This document shows, in pieces, positions 8,929-41,866 of a stretch of 64,000 bases of DNA. A program made the translations under genes and the position numbers. Source of the stretch: an uncultured Planctomycetia bacterium (GTDB lineage Bacteria > Planctomycetota > MHYJ01 > WSZJ01). The notes beneath the pieces are model-generated. The model was not told where the DNA came from and made no database searches. It was given only the letters and a program-made list of their open reading frames with translations. Every line of letters begins with the position of its first letter. Within the stretch, counting starts at the first letter, position 1. Where the stretch lies: assembly GCA_963706735.1 (NCBI GenBank), contig CAVPNQ010000096.1:2368-66367 (forward strand), read 5' to 3'.

Positions 8929-8967
8929 CGGTAAGGCGCGGGATCCTACACGGCGTCGCGGAGACTG

Positions 8968-9876
8968 TCAAACGACCTCCGTCGAAGCGATGACCTTGAG
9001 CAGTTTGTCGCCGTAGCGGCGCAGCAGCGAGGGGGGGAACCCGGCCGCGCGCAGTTCCGCGTCCGTCGTCGGGTTCTTCTCGGCGATGGTGCCCATCATC
9101 CTGTTGCCGACGCTCATGAGAAGCGCAATGTGCCCCTTGTTGGCCATCTCGGTGCGCCAGTCCAGCAGCGCCCGGAGGCGCGCCCGGGCTTTCTTGTCCC
9201 GGTTCCGCCGCGAAAACCCTTCCTCGTACGGATGCGCCTTTGGCGGCTCGTAGGCTTTCACCGACGCCAGCATCGCCTTGATCCCCTCGCGCACCGCGTC
9301 GGTCTTGCCCGCCGCGGCGACGCGCTCGCCGAGCACGCGTGCGATTCCCGGGAGGACCCATGCGTCCAGCGCCCCGTACTTGAATTGCCCAGGGGACAAG
9401 GGCCGGACCCGCCAGTTCGACTGCTGGCTCCCCTTGGTCATCGTCACCATCAGGCATTCCCGCGCCAGCTCGCGCAGGTTCGGGCTCGGGAACGCCAGCA
9501 CCTGCGCCGCCACCAGCGTGTCGAAAACATTCTCCGCCAGGATCCCGTTCACCCGCTTGAGCACCGCCAGGTCCCCGATCCCTCCGTGAACGACGAGCAC
9601 ATGAAGCGGGCTCGCGTACAGCGCTTCGATGATCGGCTTGTACTCGAACGCCAGCGAGTCGATCAGCCACGCTTCTTTCCCGTCCGAGATCTGGATGAGG
9701 GCGATCTCGCAGTGGTGCTGGCCCGTGAGCGTGGTCTCGATGTCGAGCCCCCAGGGCTCCTGTCGGGCGATGATGCGCTCGCGGAGGCGCTCGCCCGACT
9801 CCGGGTCGGAGACCCAGTGGATGGGGAAGGGAAGGGTTTCCTTGAAGGATTCGGGGGGGGGAAAGGGGGTGGGCAC
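8968..9876 (-). CDS. rnd: ribonuclease D (DEDD 3'-5' exonuclease plus HRDC-like C-terminus)
   Basis: Exo I motif WGLDIETT, then DTLVAAQVL and YGALDAWVL motifs. The C-terminal region resembles HRDC (LLDWRTEMA...IAEKNPTTDAELRA). Confidence 0.8.
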   Translation of the reverse strand: MPTPFPPPESFKETLPFPIHWVSDPESGERLRERIIARQEPWGLDIETTLTGQHHCEIALIQISDGKEAWLIDSLAFEYKPIIEALYASPLHVLVVHGGIGDLAVLKRVNGILAENVFDTLVAAQVLAFPSPNLRELARECLMVTMTKGSQQSNWRVRPLSPGQFKYGALDAWVLPGIARVLGERVAAAGKTDAVREGIKAMLASVKAYEPPKAHPYEEGFSRRNRDKKARARLRALLDWRTEMANKGHIALLMSVGNRMMGTIAEKNPTTDAELRAAGFPPSLLRRYGDKLLKVIASTEVV

Positions 9877-10135
9877 AGGAGAGTTCTAGCAGATTCTCCA
9901 ACGATTGGTCAAAAGGCAGGGGCCAATGCGACGGGGGAGGCGTGAGTGAATGCCCCTTCACGGGGAGCCGAGGCCGGGATGATCCCGATCTGCACCGCCG
10001 TTTCGAAGCCTGGCAGGCAAAAAAACTATTGCTTGAACGGCGAGGGTTCAATCGTAAAATCTCACTCCTCAGGCATGGCTTCGCAGGGGGTGGGGTGGAG
10101 CCAACAAAATTCGCACTCGTTGAGGGGAACAAAAA

Positions 10136-11911
10136 ATGATGCATCGGCTGTTCGCGTGTCTGCTCGTGCTCGGCGCCTGCGCGAGTTCCGCCTCGGCGCA
10201 GTCGGTGATTTACGGCGAGAATTTTGACGGCGGTCCCGCCGGGACCTTGCCGGCTGGATGGTCTGCGGATGCGCCGACTGGCACGGTCGGCTGGTCGGTG
10301 GACGCCACTCCGGCCGTGGACGGCGTCACTTCCGGGATGCACACGTTCTCCGGAGGCTGCTACGCCTCCATTCCCAGCACCCCGATGCCGCCCCCCATGT
10401 TCGGCACGGCTCCGTTCACGCTCAATTTCAATAACGGCGTCAATACAGAGAGCGGCGGGCTTTACTCAGGAGGGGCAACCTCTCCCGTGGTCACGGTTTC
10501 CTCCCTGACAGGAGTGACTTTGACGTTCTGGTGTCGTCATGAGGGCCTGACCTGCGATGTGTCGCCGTCGGCCGCCGGATTCGGCAGCGATCAGAAGTTC
10601 GTCGAGATCCTCGATTCAACAGGCTCAACTGTCTTGCTCTCCGTCCAGATCTGCGTCGATGCCGATGGCGACGGCGCGGCTCCTTATACCTCGAGCAGCC
10701 CGCTGATCAACACCTGCTACGAGATGTTCTCTGCTCACACCCATACCCTCGACATCAGCGGAATCGCGGTCACATCGTTCCGCATCCGGTTCCGGGCGAA
10801 CGAAGTCGTGGAAAGCACCTTGGCCGCTACCCTCGGGCCGGACACGCTCTGGATGGGATGGTTCGTCGATTCGGTCTCCGTGAACTGCCCCACGGCCGAC
10901 CTCGCTGCTCCGACCATTCCCACGCAAATCGCGCCCGCTTCGGGGATCACCGTTGTTTCCCCTGTCGTGTTCGACTGGTCCGACTCGACAGATACGGCTC
11001 CCTGCGGCCCTGGCACCGTGGTGTACCGCCTCCAGATCGACAATCTGGGAACAGTCGGCTTTCCCGACTTCGATATCCTCGGCATTGGAGCCTCAACGGC
11101 AGCCCAGGCCCTTGCTCCGGGCAGCTACGAGTGGCGAGTGCTCGCGACCGACGGAAGCGGGAATTCCAGCGCGTTCACGGGTTTGTCACCGTTCGACGTT
11201 GAAGTCAACCTTCCACCGGATCTGGCCGACACGCTGTTTGTCAACGAGTCCATCAACGGGGCCCAGAATGGGGAACCGGGTTTTGTGGATCCCGTGACGG
11301 ACCAGGAGCCCGTGTTCAGCGCGATTTATCGTGACGCCAATGCGGCGCCGGATTTTGCCGCGGGCCTGCGTTACCAGGTTTCTCTCGACCCAACGTTTGC
11401 CACCTTCGTCTTCGATTCCGGGCTGGTCGGCCTCAGCCCGGTGCTGCCCGATGACACGCGTTGCCCGGATTTGACGATCAACGTCACGCTGTCTCGCGAT
11501 ACGGTGTACTTCTGGCGTATCCAGTTCACGGACGTTGGTGGAATCACCGGCGCGTTCAGCCCGGCCCAATCGTTCCGCATCGGAGATGACTTCGAATTCG
11601 GCGTCCGGAAGGGCTCGTCTCACCACGGTCGTCGTTGCTGGGTTGCGACCGCGGCGTGGGGTAGCGAGTCTTCGCGCGTGGTGACGGAGTTGCAGGCTTG
11701 GCGAAGCAGCGCACTCGAAGCTGTCCCCGTGGGCCGGATGGCTTCCCGCGCGTATCACGTCGGCGGAGCCGTGGCCGCCGAGGGGATGTCGAAGTTGGGC
11801 ATCGTCGAGGTGTTCAAATCACCCCTGACCGGCTCGCTAGCCTCGATCGCGATCATCGGCATGCTGTTCATCCTGGCGATCGGCGCATCCCGTTTCAGCG
11901 TCCGTAGCTAA
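10136..11911 (+). CDS. secreted repeat/Fn3-like protein with a C-terminal Cys-x-x-ATAAxGS box and membrane anchor
   Basis: Signal peptide MMHRLFACLLVLGACASSASA with an SD gagggga upstream. The C-terminus is CWVATAAWGSESSRVVTELQAWR followed by the TM helix SIAIIGMLFILAIGA, resembling the recurrent CFxATAAYGS-type C-terminal sorting box (family name recalled, not verified). Confidence 0.7.
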   Translation: MMHRLFACLLVLGACASSASAQSVIYGENFDGGPAGTLPAGWSADAPTGTVGWSVDATPAVDGVTSGMHTFSGGCYASIPSTPMPPPMFGTAPFTLNFNNGVNTESGGLYSGGATSPVVTVSSLTGVTLTFWCRHEGLTCDVSPSAAGFGSDQKFVEILDSTGSTVLLSVQICVDADGDGAAPYTSSSPLINTCYEMFSAHTHTLDISGIAVTSFRIRFRANEVVESTLAATLGPDTLWMGWFVDSVSVNCPTADLAAPTIPTQIAPASGITVVSPVVFDWSDSTDTAPCGPGTVVYRLQIDNLGTVGFPDFDILGIGASTAAQALAPGSYEWRVLATDGSGNSSAFTGLSPFDVEVNLPPDLADTLFVNESINGAQNGEPGFVDPVTDQEPVFSAIYRDANAAPDFAAGLRYQVSLDPTFATFVFDSGLVGLSPVLPDDTRCPDLTINVTLSRDTVYFWRIQFTDVGGITGAFSPAQSFRIGDDFEFGVRKGSSHHGRRCWVATAAWGSESSRVVTELQAWRSSALEAVPVGRMASRAYHVGGAVAAEGMSKLGIVEVFKSPLTGSLASIAIIGMLFILAIGASRFSVRS

Positions 11912-37603: not shown

Positions 37604-37970
37604 GGCGAAGGGCGCGTCGGCAGCGCCGGCGGTTGCGTGCCGCGATCAATCAGGGATTCGATTGGAGTGGTCGGAGTGCTCTTACTTCGTGCCCAGTTCG
37701 CGTACGAGATGGCCACACAAATGCACCGAACTACCGGAAAGGCATTGATCGAGCTCTTCGGGAAGTTGGGGCTTTACAAATCAGCGACTCCGAGCCTAGA
37801 CCAAAGCGCACCATCAAGCAGCAGTCTGTTAGGTGAGGTGTAGGTAACTTCGAGCACCCCGTCCTATGGAGAGCGCCTACGTACCATTGCGCGCCATTTT
37901 TTGTTGAAAAAGTCTTGCCACGTGCAGTTGTGCATGTACCATCCCTGCATCAACACAGGGAGGCAATCCG

Positions 37971-38429
37971 ATGGACCGAGTCAAGATCGCAGAAACGCTG
38001 TTCGTGGCAGTGGGTGAGGCGAAGGCCGAGCGCGAGCGCCTGTTGCCCCAGCTCAAGGCGATCAACGAGCAACTCAACCAGCTCGACGCAGTAATCGCGG
38101 CCGGCGACGCCTACCTGCGTGGGTTCAAGGCCATCCCGGACGCGGCCCCCATCGCCGCGGCGGCAGAGAAGACGTCGGCGACCCAGCCGACGGGCGAGCA
38201 ACCTCGTGCGATGCTCGGAAAGGGAGAACTCCCGCGGATTGTGAGGGCACTCTTGGCCAACGGCAAGGAACTGACGATCCCCGAAATCGTCCGCGACGCG
38301 CGCATCGCTTTCGGCAAGGCGCTGTCTTCTGGAAGCCTAAGGACGATGCTCAATCGACAGAAAAAGACCGGCACGTTCATGCCCGGGGCCCGGGGTTGGA
38401 AAGTCGTTCCGAGAAAAGAAGGAGCGTAG
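37971..38429 (+). CDS. hypothetical protein (N-terminal coiled-coil, C-terminal winged-helix-like segment), first gene of the low-GC patch
   Basis: Good SD gggagg 7 nt upstream of the ATG. Local GC is visibly lower than the flanks. The segment LPRIVRALLANGKELTIPEIVRDARIAFGKALSSGSLRTML resembles small HTH/wHTH modules. Confidence 0.6.
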   Translation: MDRVKIAETLFVAVGEAKAERERLLPQLKAINEQLNQLDAVIAAGDAYLRGFKAIPDAAPIAAAAEKTSATQPTGEQPRAMLGKGELPRIVRALLANGKELTIPEIVRDARIAFGKALSSGSLRTMLNRQKKTGTFMPGARGWKVVPRKEGA

Positions 38430-38440
38430 CCAATAAAAAA

Positions 38441-38456
38441 GCCCCGTCGCCGGGGC
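38441..38456. terminator. short GC hairpin flanked by an A-run
   Basis: aaaaaa-gccccg-tcgc-cggggc, located between the stop at 38429 and the tRNA at 38471. Confidence 0.35.
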
Positions 38457-38470
38457 TCAAGACTGAGGTC

Positions 38471-38558
38471 GCGTGCATGGCGGAATCGGCATACGCAGCG
38501 GTCTTTAAAACCGCGGCTCCTTGGCGGGAGATTGAGGGTTCGACTCCCTCTGCACGCA
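38471..38558 (+). tRNA. class II (Leu-type) tRNA with anticodon UUA, a predicted ochre (UAA) suppressor
   Basis: Manual fold: GCGTGCA-TG-GCG-GAATCGGCATA-CGC-A-GCGGT-CTTTAAA-ACCGC, a variable arm of about 18 nt, then GAGGG-TTCGACT-CCCTC-TGCACGC-A. The anticodon is positions 38505-38507 (TTA). The D-arm is near-identical to bacterial tRNA-Leu, and the discriminator is A. Confidence 0.7.
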
Positions 38559-38566
38559 TCGAGGTT

Positions 38567-38661
38567 GCTGGCATGGCGGAATTAGCAGACGCAGCCGACT
38601 TGGGATCGGCGGGGGTATCCTTGACCGGGGCCCCGTACGGGTGCAAGTCCCGTCGTCAGCA
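38567..38661 (+). tRNA. atypical 95-nt Leu-type tRNA-like gene with anticodon UGG (possibly a pseudogene or non-canonical tRNA)
   Basis: Fold: GCTGGCA-TG-GCG-GAATTAGCAGA-CGC-A-GCCGA-CTTGGGA-TCGGC, a 26-nt variable region, then ACGGG-TGCAAGT-CCCGT-CGTCAGC-A. The acceptor has 6/7 pairs, the T-loop has G at position 55, and the variable region is over-long. The flanks cgaggt/acctcg extend the stem and are followed by cttttt. Confidence 0.45.
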
Positions 38662-38819
38662 CCTCGCTTTTTCACAGAACGTAGAAGCGATGGCCATCTA
38701 ATCGCCGCTGCATCGACATGTCAAGAAGATCTCTTGCCGCGCTGCGTCAACTCCTCGGCGCGCCAGCCTGATCACCTTTAGGAGTTTATTTCAAATCCGC
38801 TTGCCGGCGCGCCCAAGCC

Positions 38820-39400
38820 TGAAGCTGCCCCCATCTTTTGGAAGGTGACTATGCAGTGATTTAGGCAAAGTCGCCGTCTGAAACGTTTGGTCGGTCATCT
38901 GTCATCGGTCAGAGGCGGGGGAAGCACGCCGTCGAGTTCAAGGCCCGGGTGGCGCAGAATGCGGGGCCCGGACGCAAGACTCTTGGCGATCTGGGGGCGG
39001 CCGCCGGGTGCATACGACGGTAATCGCGGGGTAGAACCGGATACTCCTCGATGCGGCGCCGCATCCTTTCGCCCGAGGTGTCTCAGTTAGAGGGCAGTCG
39101 CGGGGCGGATATCATGGCGCCTCTGTACGAGCACACCGGCCCGTTCAAGATGTTGCTGGACGGCCAAAGAATAAGCTCTGATCGGCGAGATGCGACAGAA
39201 GCGCGCCTGGATCGAGCCGGGTTACTCGAAAATAGCCCTCTCGCGGTAGTGCCGGCTGTCCGGCCCGCGCGGTCGAGCTACTACTATGTGCCGATGGCTA
39301 CGGAAAGCGCGTCGTATCTACGTCTGAGGAGGGCGGTCCCGTACGCTCGAACGGATGCGTACAGCTGGATCTTGACCGAGTGGCCAGAACAGAGTCCTGG
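38820..39400 (+). pseudogene. decayed IS3-family transposase (orfA plus 5' part of orfB) with a possible left inverted repeat
   Basis: tgaagctgcccccatc at 38820 resembles IS3/IS407-type IR ends. Translated fragments AVEFKARVAQNAGPGRKTLGDLGAAAG, LYEHTGPFKMLLDG, IEPGYSKIALSR*CRL and RSSYYYVP match the conserved orfA/orfB N-terminal regions, but they are spread over frames with TAA/TAG stops. The fragment is truncated before the DDE domain. Confidence 0.65.
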
Positions 39401-39474
39401 GCCGGATGGGTTCAAGTGTTCGCGTGGGCGGGTGGCGCGAAGCGCTCGACACTCCGTATACTCCGTCACCAACA

Positions 39475-40761
39475 ATGCCACACCTCCAACAAAGCCTCTT
39501 CGGTGAGACCCAGCCTCTTTCAACGCGGCCAAAGAAGGCGGATACCTCCTCAACGTTCGCCGGGAACACCAAGCTCCCCGTGCATCGCTGGTTTCGTTTC
39601 AGCCCTGGATTCTCGGCGCCATGGGCCGAGTCGGTCATTCGAGATGCAGGAGCAACCCGCGTCCTGGATCCGTTCGCCGGGTCGGGTACCACGCTCCTTG
39701 CTGCAGAGGATGTCGGAGTGGAAGCCATCGGGGTAGAGGCTCATCCGTTCATATATCGCGTCGCTTTCGCGAAGCTGTTTCGTCGTTCTGACCCGGAAGA
39801 TTTCCTCGCGCGAGTCCGAAAAATTCGTTCCTCCGCCGCGCGGCGCAAGGGATCCAGTGAGGGGTACCCGTCGCTCGTAGAGCGGTGTTACCCGCCGGAC
39901 GTGCTTGCTGCACTGGATGCGCTTCGCGCAGCGGTAGAGGACTCTCGCGATGATTCAGCAGCATGGCATCTCTCCTGGATGGCGCTGGTGTGCATCTTGC
40001 GGATGTGCTCCCCGGTGGGAACGGCCCAGTGGCAATACGTGCTGCCCAGCAAGGTGAAAAAGCGCACGGCAGAGCCCTTCATGGCGTTCGATTCGATGAC
40101 TCAGGGCATGGCCGCGGACATGCGAACGGTAAGGTGCGCCGGGCCCCGAGCCCGTGTACTCGCGGGTGACGCCCGAAACCTAGCTGACGTGCCGGACGGC
40201 TGGGCCGATCTCGTCGTTACCTCGCCTCCGTATCCCAACAACTACGACTACGCTGACGCGACACGGCTTGAGATGTGTTTCTTCCGCGAAGTAAATGGCT
40301 GGGGGGATCTCCAAGAAACGGTGCGCAGGCTCTTGGTTCGAGCCTGCACGCAACATGTCCCGGAGCGAGCCGTGAATCTCGGCGAAGTGCTCGCCGCGCC
40401 CGAGTTGGCACCCATCCGCAAACCACTCACCGAGGTCTGCGAACAACTCGCCGAAATCCGGAAGACGAAGGGCGGGAAGAAGACCTACCACCTCATGGTC
40501 GCGTGCTATTTCCACGATCTTGCGCGAACGTGGCAGGCACTCCGTCGCTGCGCCGCTCCCGGCGCGCGCGCGTGCTTCGTCATCGGGGATTCAGCTCCTT
40601 ACGGTGTCTACGTCTCGGCCGTGGAATGGTTGGGTGAACTGGCGCTCGGCGCCGGATTCAGGACTTGGGAGTTCGAGCGGACGCGGGATCGAAACGTAAA
40701 GTGGAAGAATCGAAAACACCGCGTCCCGCTTTGCGAGGGGCGACTTTGGGTGAAAGGCTGA
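39475..40761 (+). CDS. SAM-dependent DNA methyltransferase (N6-A/N4-C type; motif I before motif IV)
   Basis: ATG at 39475. Motif I VLDPFAGSGTTLLAAE, motif IV LVVTSPPYPNNYDY, and a C-terminal FVIGDSAPYG. Followed 3 nt later by a nuclease-like gene. Confidence 0.75.
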   Translation: MPHLQQSLFGETQPLSTRPKKADTSSTFAGNTKLPVHRWFRFSPGFSAPWAESVIRDAGATRVLDPFAGSGTTLLAAEDVGVEAIGVEAHPFIYRVAFAKLFRRSDPEDFLARVRKIRSSAARRKGSSEGYPSLVERCYPPDVLAALDALRAAVEDSRDDSAAWHLSWMALVCILRMCSPVGTAQWQYVLPSKVKKRTAEPFMAFDSMTQGMAADMRTVRCAGPRARVLAGDARNLADVPDGWADLVVTSPPYPNNYDYADATRLEMCFFREVNGWGDLQETVRRLLVRACTQHVPERAVNLGEVLAAPELAPIRKPLTEVCEQLAEIRKTKGGKKTYHLMVACYFHDLARTWQALRRCAAPGARACFVIGDSAPYGVYVSAVEWLGELALGAGFRTWEFERTRDRNVKWKNRKHRVPLCEGRLWVKG

Positions 40762-40764
40762 TCG

Positions 40765-41628
40765 GTGGCTACCTCCCCGACACACAGGTTCGGCCAGATC
40801 ATCGGCGATGTTCTCGAGGCGGCGCTAAATGAACCGCTTTCGGAAGTGGCGAAGCGACACGGGCTGTACCTCGACTGCAAACGCCCGCGCGCAGCTCGAG
40901 GTGGAAAGTCGAAAGTCGGATGGGATGACAACAAGGGGAACCGGCACGACTTGGATTATGTCCTAGAGGCGGGTGGAACAGACGCTACCGTTGGACGGCC
41001 GAAGGCATTCATCGAAATCGCGTACCGCCGCTATACGAAGCACTCGCGCAACAAGTCCCAAGAAATTCAAGGCGCGATCACTCCGCTCTGCGAAACGTAC
41101 GCACAGGACCACCCGTTCATCGGCGGCGTGTTGGCCGGCGTCTTCACGGAGGGATCGCTTACCCAACTTCGCTCTCACGGATTTGACGTGCTCTACATGC
41201 CGTTCGACAGCATCGTCAAGGCCTTCAAGGTGGTCGGGATAGACGCGTACTTTGATGAGGAATCGGAGGATTCTGAGGTGCAACGCAAGGTGGACAAATG
41301 GAATCGTCTCCCCGCGAACGCCACAGCAAAGGTCGGGGCAGAGATGCGCAAGGTCGAAAGCGCCGCGTTTGCCAAGTTCGTGACTGGGCTGGAGGTGGCG
41401 CTCAACCGTTCGGTCACTTCGGTTTTCGTGCTGGCCTTACACGGCCAAGCGAAGGAGGTGACCACTGTCGAGTCCGCCATTGCCTTCATCGACGGGTTTA
41501 ACGAAGCGAGGGCGGGTGGAAAGTTTGTGAGGTTCGAGGTAAATGTCCGCTACTCGAATAGAGACGAGATTCGCGGCACGTTCGAGTCAAAAGTAGAGGC
41601 CATCAGGTTTCTGCAGAGCCTTGTCTAG
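40765..41628 (+). CDS. putative restriction endonuclease (PD-(D/E)XK-like), partner of the methyltransferase
   Basis: GTG start 3 nt after the MTase stop. The segment NRHDLDYVLEAGG...KAFIEIAYRRYTKH resembles a D...E-x-K nuclease core. No other family recognised. Confidence 0.5.
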   Translation: MATSPTHRFGQIIGDVLEAALNEPLSEVAKRHGLYLDCKRPRAARGGKSKVGWDDNKGNRHDLDYVLEAGGTDATVGRPKAFIEIAYRRYTKHSRNKSQEIQGAITPLCETYAQDHPFIGGVLAGVFTEGSLTQLRSHGFDVLYMPFDSIVKAFKVVGIDAYFDEESEDSEVQRKVDKWNRLPANATAKVGAEMRKVESAAFAKFVTGLEVALNRSVTSVFVLALHGQAKEVTTVESAIAFIDGFNEARAGGKFVRFEVNVRYSNRDEIRGTFESKVEAIRFLQSLV

Positions 41629-41866
41629 GCGCCACTGTTCCGCCCCGCTTCGAGCGCCTGCCGCGATCTCGCATGCTTGATGCTCTCCGAACCTGGCTGA
41701 ACCTAACCGCAGAACACCTCCGCAGCGCAGTCGGTTGCGCGACAAATTCCTTCCGGTATTCCGGCGCACCGAGAGATCCAAACCACGTCGGCCCGCGTTG
41801 ACTCTGTGTATGCACACCGGTAGCCTCCCGACCACGCAACTCACCGAGTTCCCGTGCGTACCGCTC

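Follow-up and report, generated by a model that had tools for sequence, protein, structure and literature searches.

The window analysed here (64,000 nt from an uncultured Planctomycetia bacterium) encodes, as the second of two tandem tRNA genes, a class II tRNA of the leucine type whose anticodon, UGG, is one of proline (tRNA2; its tandem partner is referred to as tRNA1). We propose, with about even confidence, that tRNA2 is an intact accessory gene of a mobile lineage of Leu-type tRNA(UGG) genes, and that it would be charged with leucine and allow a low level of proline-to-leucine decoding. The lineage to which it belongs is usually the cargo of insertion sequences of the IS1595 family, where it stands convergent with the transposase gene. 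This lineage is widespread and apparently undescribed, and its link with IS1595 had been missed by the preliminary description of this DNA.

Structure of the tandem tRNA genes

Both genes are called by ARAGORN, tRNA1 with the anticodon tta (38471-38558) and tRNA2, which starts 8 nt after it, as tRNA-Pro(tgg) (38567-38663). With the Rfam tRNA model (RF00005) run over the whole window, tRNA2 (38567-38661) reaches 38.4 bits (E = 1.6e-4) vs 56.4 bits for its neighbour; the covariance-model check that had been suggested thus gave a score above the gathering score of 29. A family model (R1), whose training set includes tRNA2 itself, gives it 80 bits. The acceptor stem is of 7 bp (GCUGGCA/CGUCAGC) with a single mismatch, A7·C66, every one of the 5 bp of the T-stem is a standard pair, the D-arm (UGGCGGAAUUAGCAGACGC) is of the Leu type, the D-loop (AAUUAGCAG) contains A18 and G19, and the discriminator A73 is the A at 38661. 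When paired by hand (unscored), the variable region would give about 8 bp of helix, with UAU bulged out and UUGAC in the loop. The features of the tandem and of its surroundings are collected in Table 1.

Table 1. Features of the tRNA tandem and its surroundings, in window positions (G003, sister genome; L093, the homologous locus in the same-genus genome G004)
Feature	Position	Strand	Basis
Strain-specific lower-GC island, 4.1 kb	37637..41750	.	homology break vs G003; GC profile
Promoter-like site upstream of the 152-aa gene	37915..37942	+	consensus match only
Orphan protein, 152 aa; predicted long N-terminal helix, disordered linker and C-terminal winged helix	37971..38429	+	AlphaFold model
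Strong intrinsic terminator, opposite strand, just 5' of both tRNAs	38431..38458	-	terminator scan
tRNA1, Leu-type class II, anticodon UUA, tandem partner	38471..38558	+	ARAGORN, Rfam
5' flank CGAGGU(U), lengthens the acceptor helix by pairing with the 3' trailer	38560..38566	+	fold; counterpart in G004 homologue
tRNA2, class II Leu-type tRNA, 95 nt, UGG, 7/5 cloverleaf, A73	38567..38661	+	ARAGORN, Rfam, parser
A18, replacing the near-universal G18; pairs with G55	38584	+	co-occurrence with G55
UGG anticodon; loop CUUGGGA, U33, G37	38601..38603	+	sequence, ARAGORN, Rfam alignment
Variable region, 26 nt	38611..38636	+	parsed; homologous arm with compensatory changes in L093
G55, T-loop UGCAAGU	38643	+	parsed sequence
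3' trailer CCUCG and T5 run; putative terminator of the tRNA operon	38662..38672	+	fold; L093 layout alike

The preliminary description was correct in each of its points, that is, the 95-nt Leu-like class II body with UGG (borne out by ARAGORN, Rfam and direct reading), the 26-nt variable region, the TGCAAGT T-loop with G55, the one acceptor mismatch and the 8-nt spacing. It was also right about the likeness of the 5' half to that of the neighbour, the two genes forming a direct repeat with 75% identity over the 5' half and leader and 65% identity overall. Likewise, the extension of the acceptor helix by the flanks, followed by a U-run, is confirmed by the fold, in which CGAGGU (38560-38565) pairs with ACCUCG (38661-38666) ahead of TTTTT (38668-38672) and which reaches -52.6 kcal/mol (z = -2.5) for tRNA2 and its flanks. 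The 3' trailer and T5 run are likely the intrinsic terminator of the tRNA operon; the extended acceptor stem encloses a full cloverleaf, and a consensus terminator scan made no call on this multibranch stem. A terminator role besides the tRNA role is plausible, since the acceptor extension and U-run recur with compensatory changes in the homologue of the same genus.

A covarying family of Leu-type tRNA(UGG) genes

The family was surveyed with the pattern TGGCGGAA-N5-9-ACGC-N6-CTTGGRA in one genome per species (185,579 species), which yielded 97 loci, where by our own estimate some 43 chance matches are expected. Chance matches were removed by a structural parser that required an acceptor stem and a T-arm, and 27 class II A73 tRNA(UGG) genes were kept in addition to the window's copy; L102, the 28th tRNA-bearing scan locus, failed the parser because of an odd T-arm. 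Overall, about 45 UGG relatives with a Leu-type body and A73 were found in at least nine phyla, the scan loci coming from Acidobacteriota, Planctomycetota, Verrucomicrobiota, Gemmatimonadota, Armatimonadota, Proteobacteria, Chloroflexota, Actinomycetota and Binatota. The pattern also matched the 5' halves of tRNA-Leu genes in seven loci (L048, L056, L060, L062, L065, L071 and L076), where CUU is followed by about 100 nt or more with GCTCAAATTCGGGGAA and which look, by eye, like intron-interrupted tRNA-Leu(UAA) genes.

Among the 26 distinct sequences, 99% of the stem cells pair, and double-sided changes occur at 15 pairs (112 cells); in the anticodon stem, on which the selection did not depend, 5/5 pairs show compensatory changes. 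None of 500 shuffles matched the observed covariation, and slid registers also fell far short of it. The check for covariation among homologues that had been called for therefore found many homologues and strong compensatory change, and, with an above-threshold covariance score and many covarying homologues, tRNA2 presents the opposite of the low score without conserved homologues that had been named as grounds for giving it up.

The A18:G55 pair and the long variable arm

A18 and G55 occur together in four of the 26 distinct members of the family (those of the window, L053, L089 and L116), and the remaining 22 carry G18 and U55, with A18/G55 in 0/22. A metagenome scan blind to the anticodon looked for class II tRNAs that combine an A18 D-loop and a UGCAA T-loop, and it recovered at least 89 well-formed genes; among the matches listed, 71 have leucine anticodons and 14 have UGG, with one each of CGG, AGG, GCU and UCA. 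The 71 listed genes with leucine anticodons have variable regions of 13-18 nt, and variable regions of 22-33 nt were seen, among the matches listed, only in members with proline anticodons. The A18/G55 tRNA-Leu genes (loci L119-L237, e.g., L121, L125 and L143; 71 among the first 120 matches) include all five isoacceptor types.

Since G55 is always paired with A18, and since the combination is common in ordinary metagenomic tRNA-Leu genes, G55 is no defect. To judge from these sequences, A18:G55 occurs naturally in tRNA-Leu in place of G18:Ψ55 and is no sign of decay; in its covariation, nature has in effect run an experiment on a tertiary pair that is almost universal in tRNA. The preliminary description had listed G55 and the long arm as non-canonical features, and both are indeed there, but they are traits of a lineage and not anomalies. 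The score of tRNA2 in Rfam lies just under the range of those of its A18/G55 relatives that exceed the threshold (40.5-54.6 bits; two others are below it). Four genomes that carry the A18/G55 type were examined, and none of them has a class II tRNA with A18/G55 besides its UGG tRNA.

Could the gene be a local product of its neighbour, or no tRNA at all? Of about 115 class II tRNAs, the 15 closest to tRNA2 have UGG without exception (72-78% identity) and tRNA1 is only 65% identical, which excludes both a local anticodon mutation and the recombination scar that had been considered earlier; the scar is further contradicted by the match of A18, in the 5' half, with G55, in the 3' half. The more general idea that the sequence is a tRNA-like terminator hairpin, or a scar of two tRNA halves, is scarcely credible. 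The extended acceptor helix and U-run are terminator-like and the 5' half is similar to that of the neighbouring tRNA, but the closest relatives along the whole length are without exception UGG tRNAs, the two halves fit each other at positions 18 and 55, and the full cloverleaf covaries across 26 relatives. The covarying family and the intact cloverleaf are equally at odds with the earlier suggestion of a tRNA-like structure merely doubling as a terminator.

Association with IS1595 elements

A DNA search of 60 related genomes returned a single true homologue, in the same-genus MAG G004 (JBBTCT010000022.1, locus L093). It also forms part of a tandem, in which a Ser-like class II tRNA with a Trp anticodon (CCA) is followed by a 95-nt Leu-like UGG tRNA with a canonical GG/UUCGAAU elbow (55.5 bits with Rfam), whose flanks, UGAGGCU/AGUCUCA ahead of T5, are the compensatory counterpart of the acceptor extension in the window. 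Ahead of the tandem lies a 141-aa ORF and behind it, on the opposite strand, the gene for an IS1595-family transposase with PF12762 and PF12760, and perfect 21-bp inverted repeats (CGGGATTATGCACTTGACAAA) flank the ORF, both tRNAs and the transposase, delimiting an element of 2136 bp. Because the chromosomal surroundings of this tandem are unlike those of the window, the tRNA module must be mobile.

The same association holds for the family at large. With the G004 transposase as tblastn query, 22 of the 28 scan loci that bear a tRNA proved to adjoin an IS1595 transposase, and no chance locus did; in the metagenome scan, among the matches listed, such a transposase stands beside 9/15 UGG loci vs 0/71 Leu loci. 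As a rule the two genes converge (tRNA -> <- transposase), and 14-250 nt separate the 3' end of the tRNA from the stop codon of the transposase. A Bryobacteraceae chromosome has two 100%-identical copies of 2118 bp, tRNA included, whose ends are inverted repeats related to those of G004, so that the tRNA is enclosed by inverted repeats in both of the two elements with mapped ends. A few copies lie in predicted viral contigs, again next to a transposase. In a transposase-first, tRNA-blind sample of 401 Planctomycetota genomes, transposase relatives were found in 43, and the family covariance model, run on the 30 loci fetched, detected Leu-like cargo tRNAs with UGG in three cases and UGC in one. 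A test for co-phylogeny of tRNAs and transposases was not significant (Mantel r = 0.10, p = 0.21). IS1595 elements (ISfinder) have a DDE transposase with an N-terminal zinc ribbon, short terminal inverted repeats and room for passenger genes; what sets the present case apart from those with other passengers is that a tRNA is a regular passenger in the family, and that the window lacks the IS itself.

Several minor observations were made on these elements. The motif (C)UUGAC appears in the variable-arm loops of the window's copy (38619-38626), L093, L042, L116, L173 and L226, and the terminal repeat of the IS, CACTTGACAAA (L093 727-747 and 2842-2862), has the same motif as its core; the motif is a -35-like hexamer as well, and all this may be coincidence. 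A link between the variable-arm CUUGAC and the inverted-repeat core CTTGACAAA was considered and dropped, because a motif so short, and so variable from one relative to the next, cannot carry it. In L094 (976-1049) and L061 (~880-955), the UGG tRNA has another irregular tRNA-like gene immediately upstream, which in L094 is of class I, 74 nt long, and carries the Ser anticodon CGA. Some IS1595 transposase frames contain in-frame stops, namely a TGA at a conserved Glu in L044, a TAA in G190:C50, a TGA in G187:C72, and a TGA and a TAA in G433:C23; such frames may be pseudogenes, or suppressor tRNAs among the cargo may read them.

A stranded cassette in a strain-specific island

The cassette lies in a 4.1-kb strain-specific island, since the homology to the sister genome G003 ends at ~37637 and restarts at ~41750. 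Seven other genomes of the genus lack it. Its content comprises the 152-aa gene, the two tRNAs (UUA and UGG), IS3-like fragments, and a DNA methyltransferase (PF01555) with a nuclease-like partner; none of its ORFs encodes a synthetase. G003 bears an unrelated 2.4-kb insert at this site (G003:C63 ~8964-11431), and the intergenic site, between an esterase-like gene and a Ser/Thr kinase gene, appears to be an insertion hot spot in the two species. No IS1595 transposase was detected by tblastn in the window or the genome, nor any inverted repeat in the window in a search allowing 3 mismatches. The island would be a recent acquisition in which tRNA2 is stranded but intact, next to a second tRNA with a wrong anticodon (UUA), the transposase and repeats having been lost.

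This situation raises the question of whether tRNA2 is a relic, real by descent yet functionless here, a decayed IS1595 cargo whose disabling mutations have yet to accumulate. The loss of transposase and repeats fits such a reading, as do the degraded IS3-like remnant adjoining tRNA2, the absence of the island elsewhere in the genus, the A18/G55 body that is foreign among the host's own Leu tRNAs, the low Rfam score for the A18/G55 subfamily, and the A7·C66 mismatch, which within the family is found in tRNA2 alone. On the other hand, all the family-invariant bases are present, 19 of the 20 stem pairs are intact, and next to a wrecked IS3 the tandem, its two terminators and the small gene have stayed whole. 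On balance, a relic appears unlikely, and an intact accessory gene is the reading followed below.

The 152-aa protein encoded upstream has no sequence relatives by word search or by full HMMER. Its AlphaFold model (pLDDT 86) has winged-helix fold matches, and a winged helix is thus suggested by the fold. Similarly built small proteins precede 12 other UGG tRNAs; with the window's protein counted in, HARE-HTH matches 3 of the 13, and the profile comparison of the 152-aa protein with these positional analogues is weak. In five loci of Terriglobia/Acidobacteriota belonging to the subgroup with short variable arms (L021, L023, L074, L079 and L103), a gene for a protein with an NYN domain (173-185 aa; PF01936, E = 5e-25 for the L023 protein, the one scanned) stands in for the winged-helix gene, divergent and ~70-85 nt upstream of the tRNA(UGG).

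Aminoacylation and codon use

E. coli LeuRS requires A73 and a set of elbow features (A15:U48, G18G19, A20a, G18:U55, G19-C56 and U54:A58) and ignores the anticodon and the variable arm, and C2-G71 blocks SerRS (PMC9976931). Besides A73, tRNA2 carries C2-G71 and, in its D-loop (AAUUAGCAG), the final U of the variable region and the T-loop, the determinants A15:U48, G19-C56, U54:A58 and A20a; the leucine determinant G18:U55 is replaced by A18:G55. To judge by these rules, LeuRS should accept it as a substrate, with Pro-to-Leu substitution at CCA and CCG as the outcome. The host LeuRS may charge it poorly, because G18:U55 aids leucine identity in E. coli and A18/G55 is foreign to the hosts.

In the proposed course of events, sequence features suggest that tRNA2 would be transcribed together with tRNA1 and that transcription would stop at the extended acceptor helix and U5; the transcript would be processed to a mature tRNA. 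By the identity rules, LeuRS, blind to the anticodon, would charge it, and ProRS may do so in parallel by way of G35, G36, G37 and A73. The charged tRNA would then compete with the host tRNA-Pro for CCA and, through wobble, for CCG, and the result would be a low-level Pro-to-Leu ambiguity, chiefly at CCA, the rarest proline codon of the host (1.2 per 1000 codons and 2% of Pro codons, with CCG at 32 per 1000). The most likely outcome would be leucylation, perhaps with some prolylation, and the decoding of both codons; mistranslation by tRNA2 is a plausible candidate effect. The alternatives may be partial charging by ProRS, poor charging by the host or a non-translational role.

Is a supply of proline then what the gene is for? 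A functional proline tRNA in a Leu-type body, charged by ProRS and supplying CCA/CCG decoding for the element in the manner of phage tRNAs, seems very unlikely to us. The presence of three or four bacterial proline determinants (G35, G36, G37 and A73) speaks for it, but the body fails the rules for tRNA-Pro, being class II with a 26-nt variable region, G1-C72 and A15:U48 (vs class I, C1-G72 and G15:C48), and with its A73 it retains leucine identity. Codon supply also fails to account for the sister cargo tRNAs, in which UGC, CCA and UUA stand on the same Leu or Ser bodies. A canonical tRNA-Pro(UGG) gene, moreover, is found in the genus, in G003 and in the IS-carrying G004, so the Leu-type tRNA is an extra and no replacement, and a role of tRNA2 as substitute for a lost tRNA-Pro(UGG) was rejected on this account; the canonical gene is missing from the host's 83%-complete assembly, where its absence is probably a gap.

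Codon use within the elements was examined in an alignment of 16 transposases from UGG-bearing elements, in which a private recoding of proline codons would place these at leucine columns. Codons at conserved proline columns amount to 17/43 for CCA, 40/88 for CCG and 13/35 for CCC, the first two being as frequent there as the last, and those at Leu or hydrophobic columns to 1/43 for CCA, 7/88 for CCG, 1/35 for CCC and 1/7 for CCT, without enrichment. Private recoding of these 16 transposases is consequently unsupported, and efficient leucine insertion would harm the carrier element, because its transposase uses CCA and CCG at conserved prolines. This use fits a proline supply, which is also weakly favoured by a rough comparison of transposases with flanking ORFs (CCA 25% vs 15%; CCA and CCG together 77% vs 63%).

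Antisense features and a possible non-translational role

The opposite-strand terminator just 5' of the tandem would, from its position, halt antisense transcripts traversing the tRNAs. Such a terminator is also present 5' of the tRNA in the G004 locus and in many relatives, and with a strict detector it was scored in 11/41 relatives vs 6/64 controls. The G004 locus has, in addition, an antisense promoter-like site (TTGACA, 17 nt, TATTCT). In the window, a weak antisense promoter-like site (TTGACA, 17 nt, TTAGAT; 38696-38724, minus strand) was seen by eye, below the scan threshold, 64 nt downstream of tRNA2, and matches the stronger G004 site in position.

These opposite-strand terminators and the promoter-like site in G004 make antisense control, or a role at the RNA level, possible. 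Could tRNA2 then be an RNA that is not translational at all, e.g., an antisense to the 3' end of the transposase mRNA, a ligand of the winged-helix or NYN protein, or part of a decoy or toxin-antitoxin system? In favour are the transposase stop codon lying so close to the tRNA 3' end on the other strand, the winged-helix or NYN-domain neighbour, and the published irregular tRNAs, which are charged in vitro yet unused in translation (PMC5389517). Against it, 13 of the 14 anticodon-blind UGG relatives (among the matches listed) retain U33 together with a purine at 37, UGG is conserved although the tRNA stems diverge to 46-83% identity, and the CCA end is encoded in several of the relatives' genes, all of which indicates ribosomal use. 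A purely non-translational RNA is therefore quite unlikely, and a translationally active tRNA with leucine identity is kept as the working interpretation.

Relation to known systems

Natural tRNAs in which body and anticodon disagree are rare, special cases, such as the allo-tRNAs, tRNAProX and the tRNAs of CUG-clade yeasts. The allo-tRNAs and irregular-tRNA polycistrons of soil bacteria have 8/4 or 9/3 acceptor/T-stems and mostly serine identity (Mukai et al. 2017, PMC5389517). With them tRNA2 shares the class II body, the long variable arm, an anticodon at odds with the identity and, sometimes, the tandem arrangement; allo-tRNAs, which come mostly from Acidobacteria and soil metagenomes, also have transposon-related and toxin-antitoxin genes nearby, and the tRNA2 family is likewise associated with transposons. 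The likeness that had been drawn earlier holds in this functional sense, but the defining 8/4 or 9/3 structure (a 12-bp branch) is absent: tRNA2 has a 7/5 cloverleaf, a 7-bp acceptor and 5-bp T-stem, and is Leu-type with A73, so it is no allo-tRNA. Systematic carriage in IS1595 elements, a property of its family, has not been described for allo-tRNAs.

The tRNAProX/ProRSx systems of Streptomyces and Kitasatospora are also a natural bacterial mismatch of identity and anticodon, with a supposed regulated mistranslation involving proline (PMC10404621, PMC11415595). They are, however, a mirror image, in which Pro-type bodies carry Ala, Asn or Thr anticodons and a dedicated synthetase is provided, whereas tRNA2 is a Leu-type body with a Pro anticodon, its island has no synthetase and the carrier of its family is a transposon. 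The exploitation of anticodon-blind SerRS or LeuRS is, on the other hand, alike in the tRNA-Ser(CAG) of CUG-clade yeasts and in engineered tRNA-Ser(UGG), the latter substituting at proline codons as is proposed for tRNA2 (PMC11415595, PMC6827378); those tRNAs are chromosomal or engineered and eukaryotic, and tRNA2 belongs to a bacterial, Leu-type and mobile lineage. In its manner of working tRNA2 thus resembles the mismatched tRNAs, yet it fits neither the allo-tRNA nor the tRNAProX family. A literature search whose reach mostly stopped short of subscription journals found no Leu-type tRNAs with a wrong anticodon and no tRNA cargo in IS1595.

Here the mismatch is the property of a large, structurally conserved lineage that rides on a common transposon family in at least nine phyla. 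If such tRNAs are charged and used, missense decoding could move horizontally like a resistance gene, and the annotation label "tRNA-Pro" would be misleading. A broader scheme, which we regard as doubtful, would have IS1595 spreading a LeuRS-chargeable tRNA retargeted to CCA, sometimes with a reader of stop or Trp codons, held in check by antisense transcription from the side of the transposase and by the winged-helix or NYN proteins, so that CCA ambiguity would be both transferable and regulated; the A18:G55 swap could then tune recognition by foreign LeuRS enzymes. As one carrier of a UGG tRNA, Granulicella sp. L46 (locus L116), is cultured, the question is directly testable.

As a last observation, the genome that contains the window also has, outside it, an array of 36 tRNA genes in ~5 kb (C121:39116-44217) for nearly all amino acids, among them short class-I-like tRNA-Leu genes as well as a tRNA-Pro(UGG) whose position 33 is C (C33), and a similar tRNA array is present in the relative G048 (L016).
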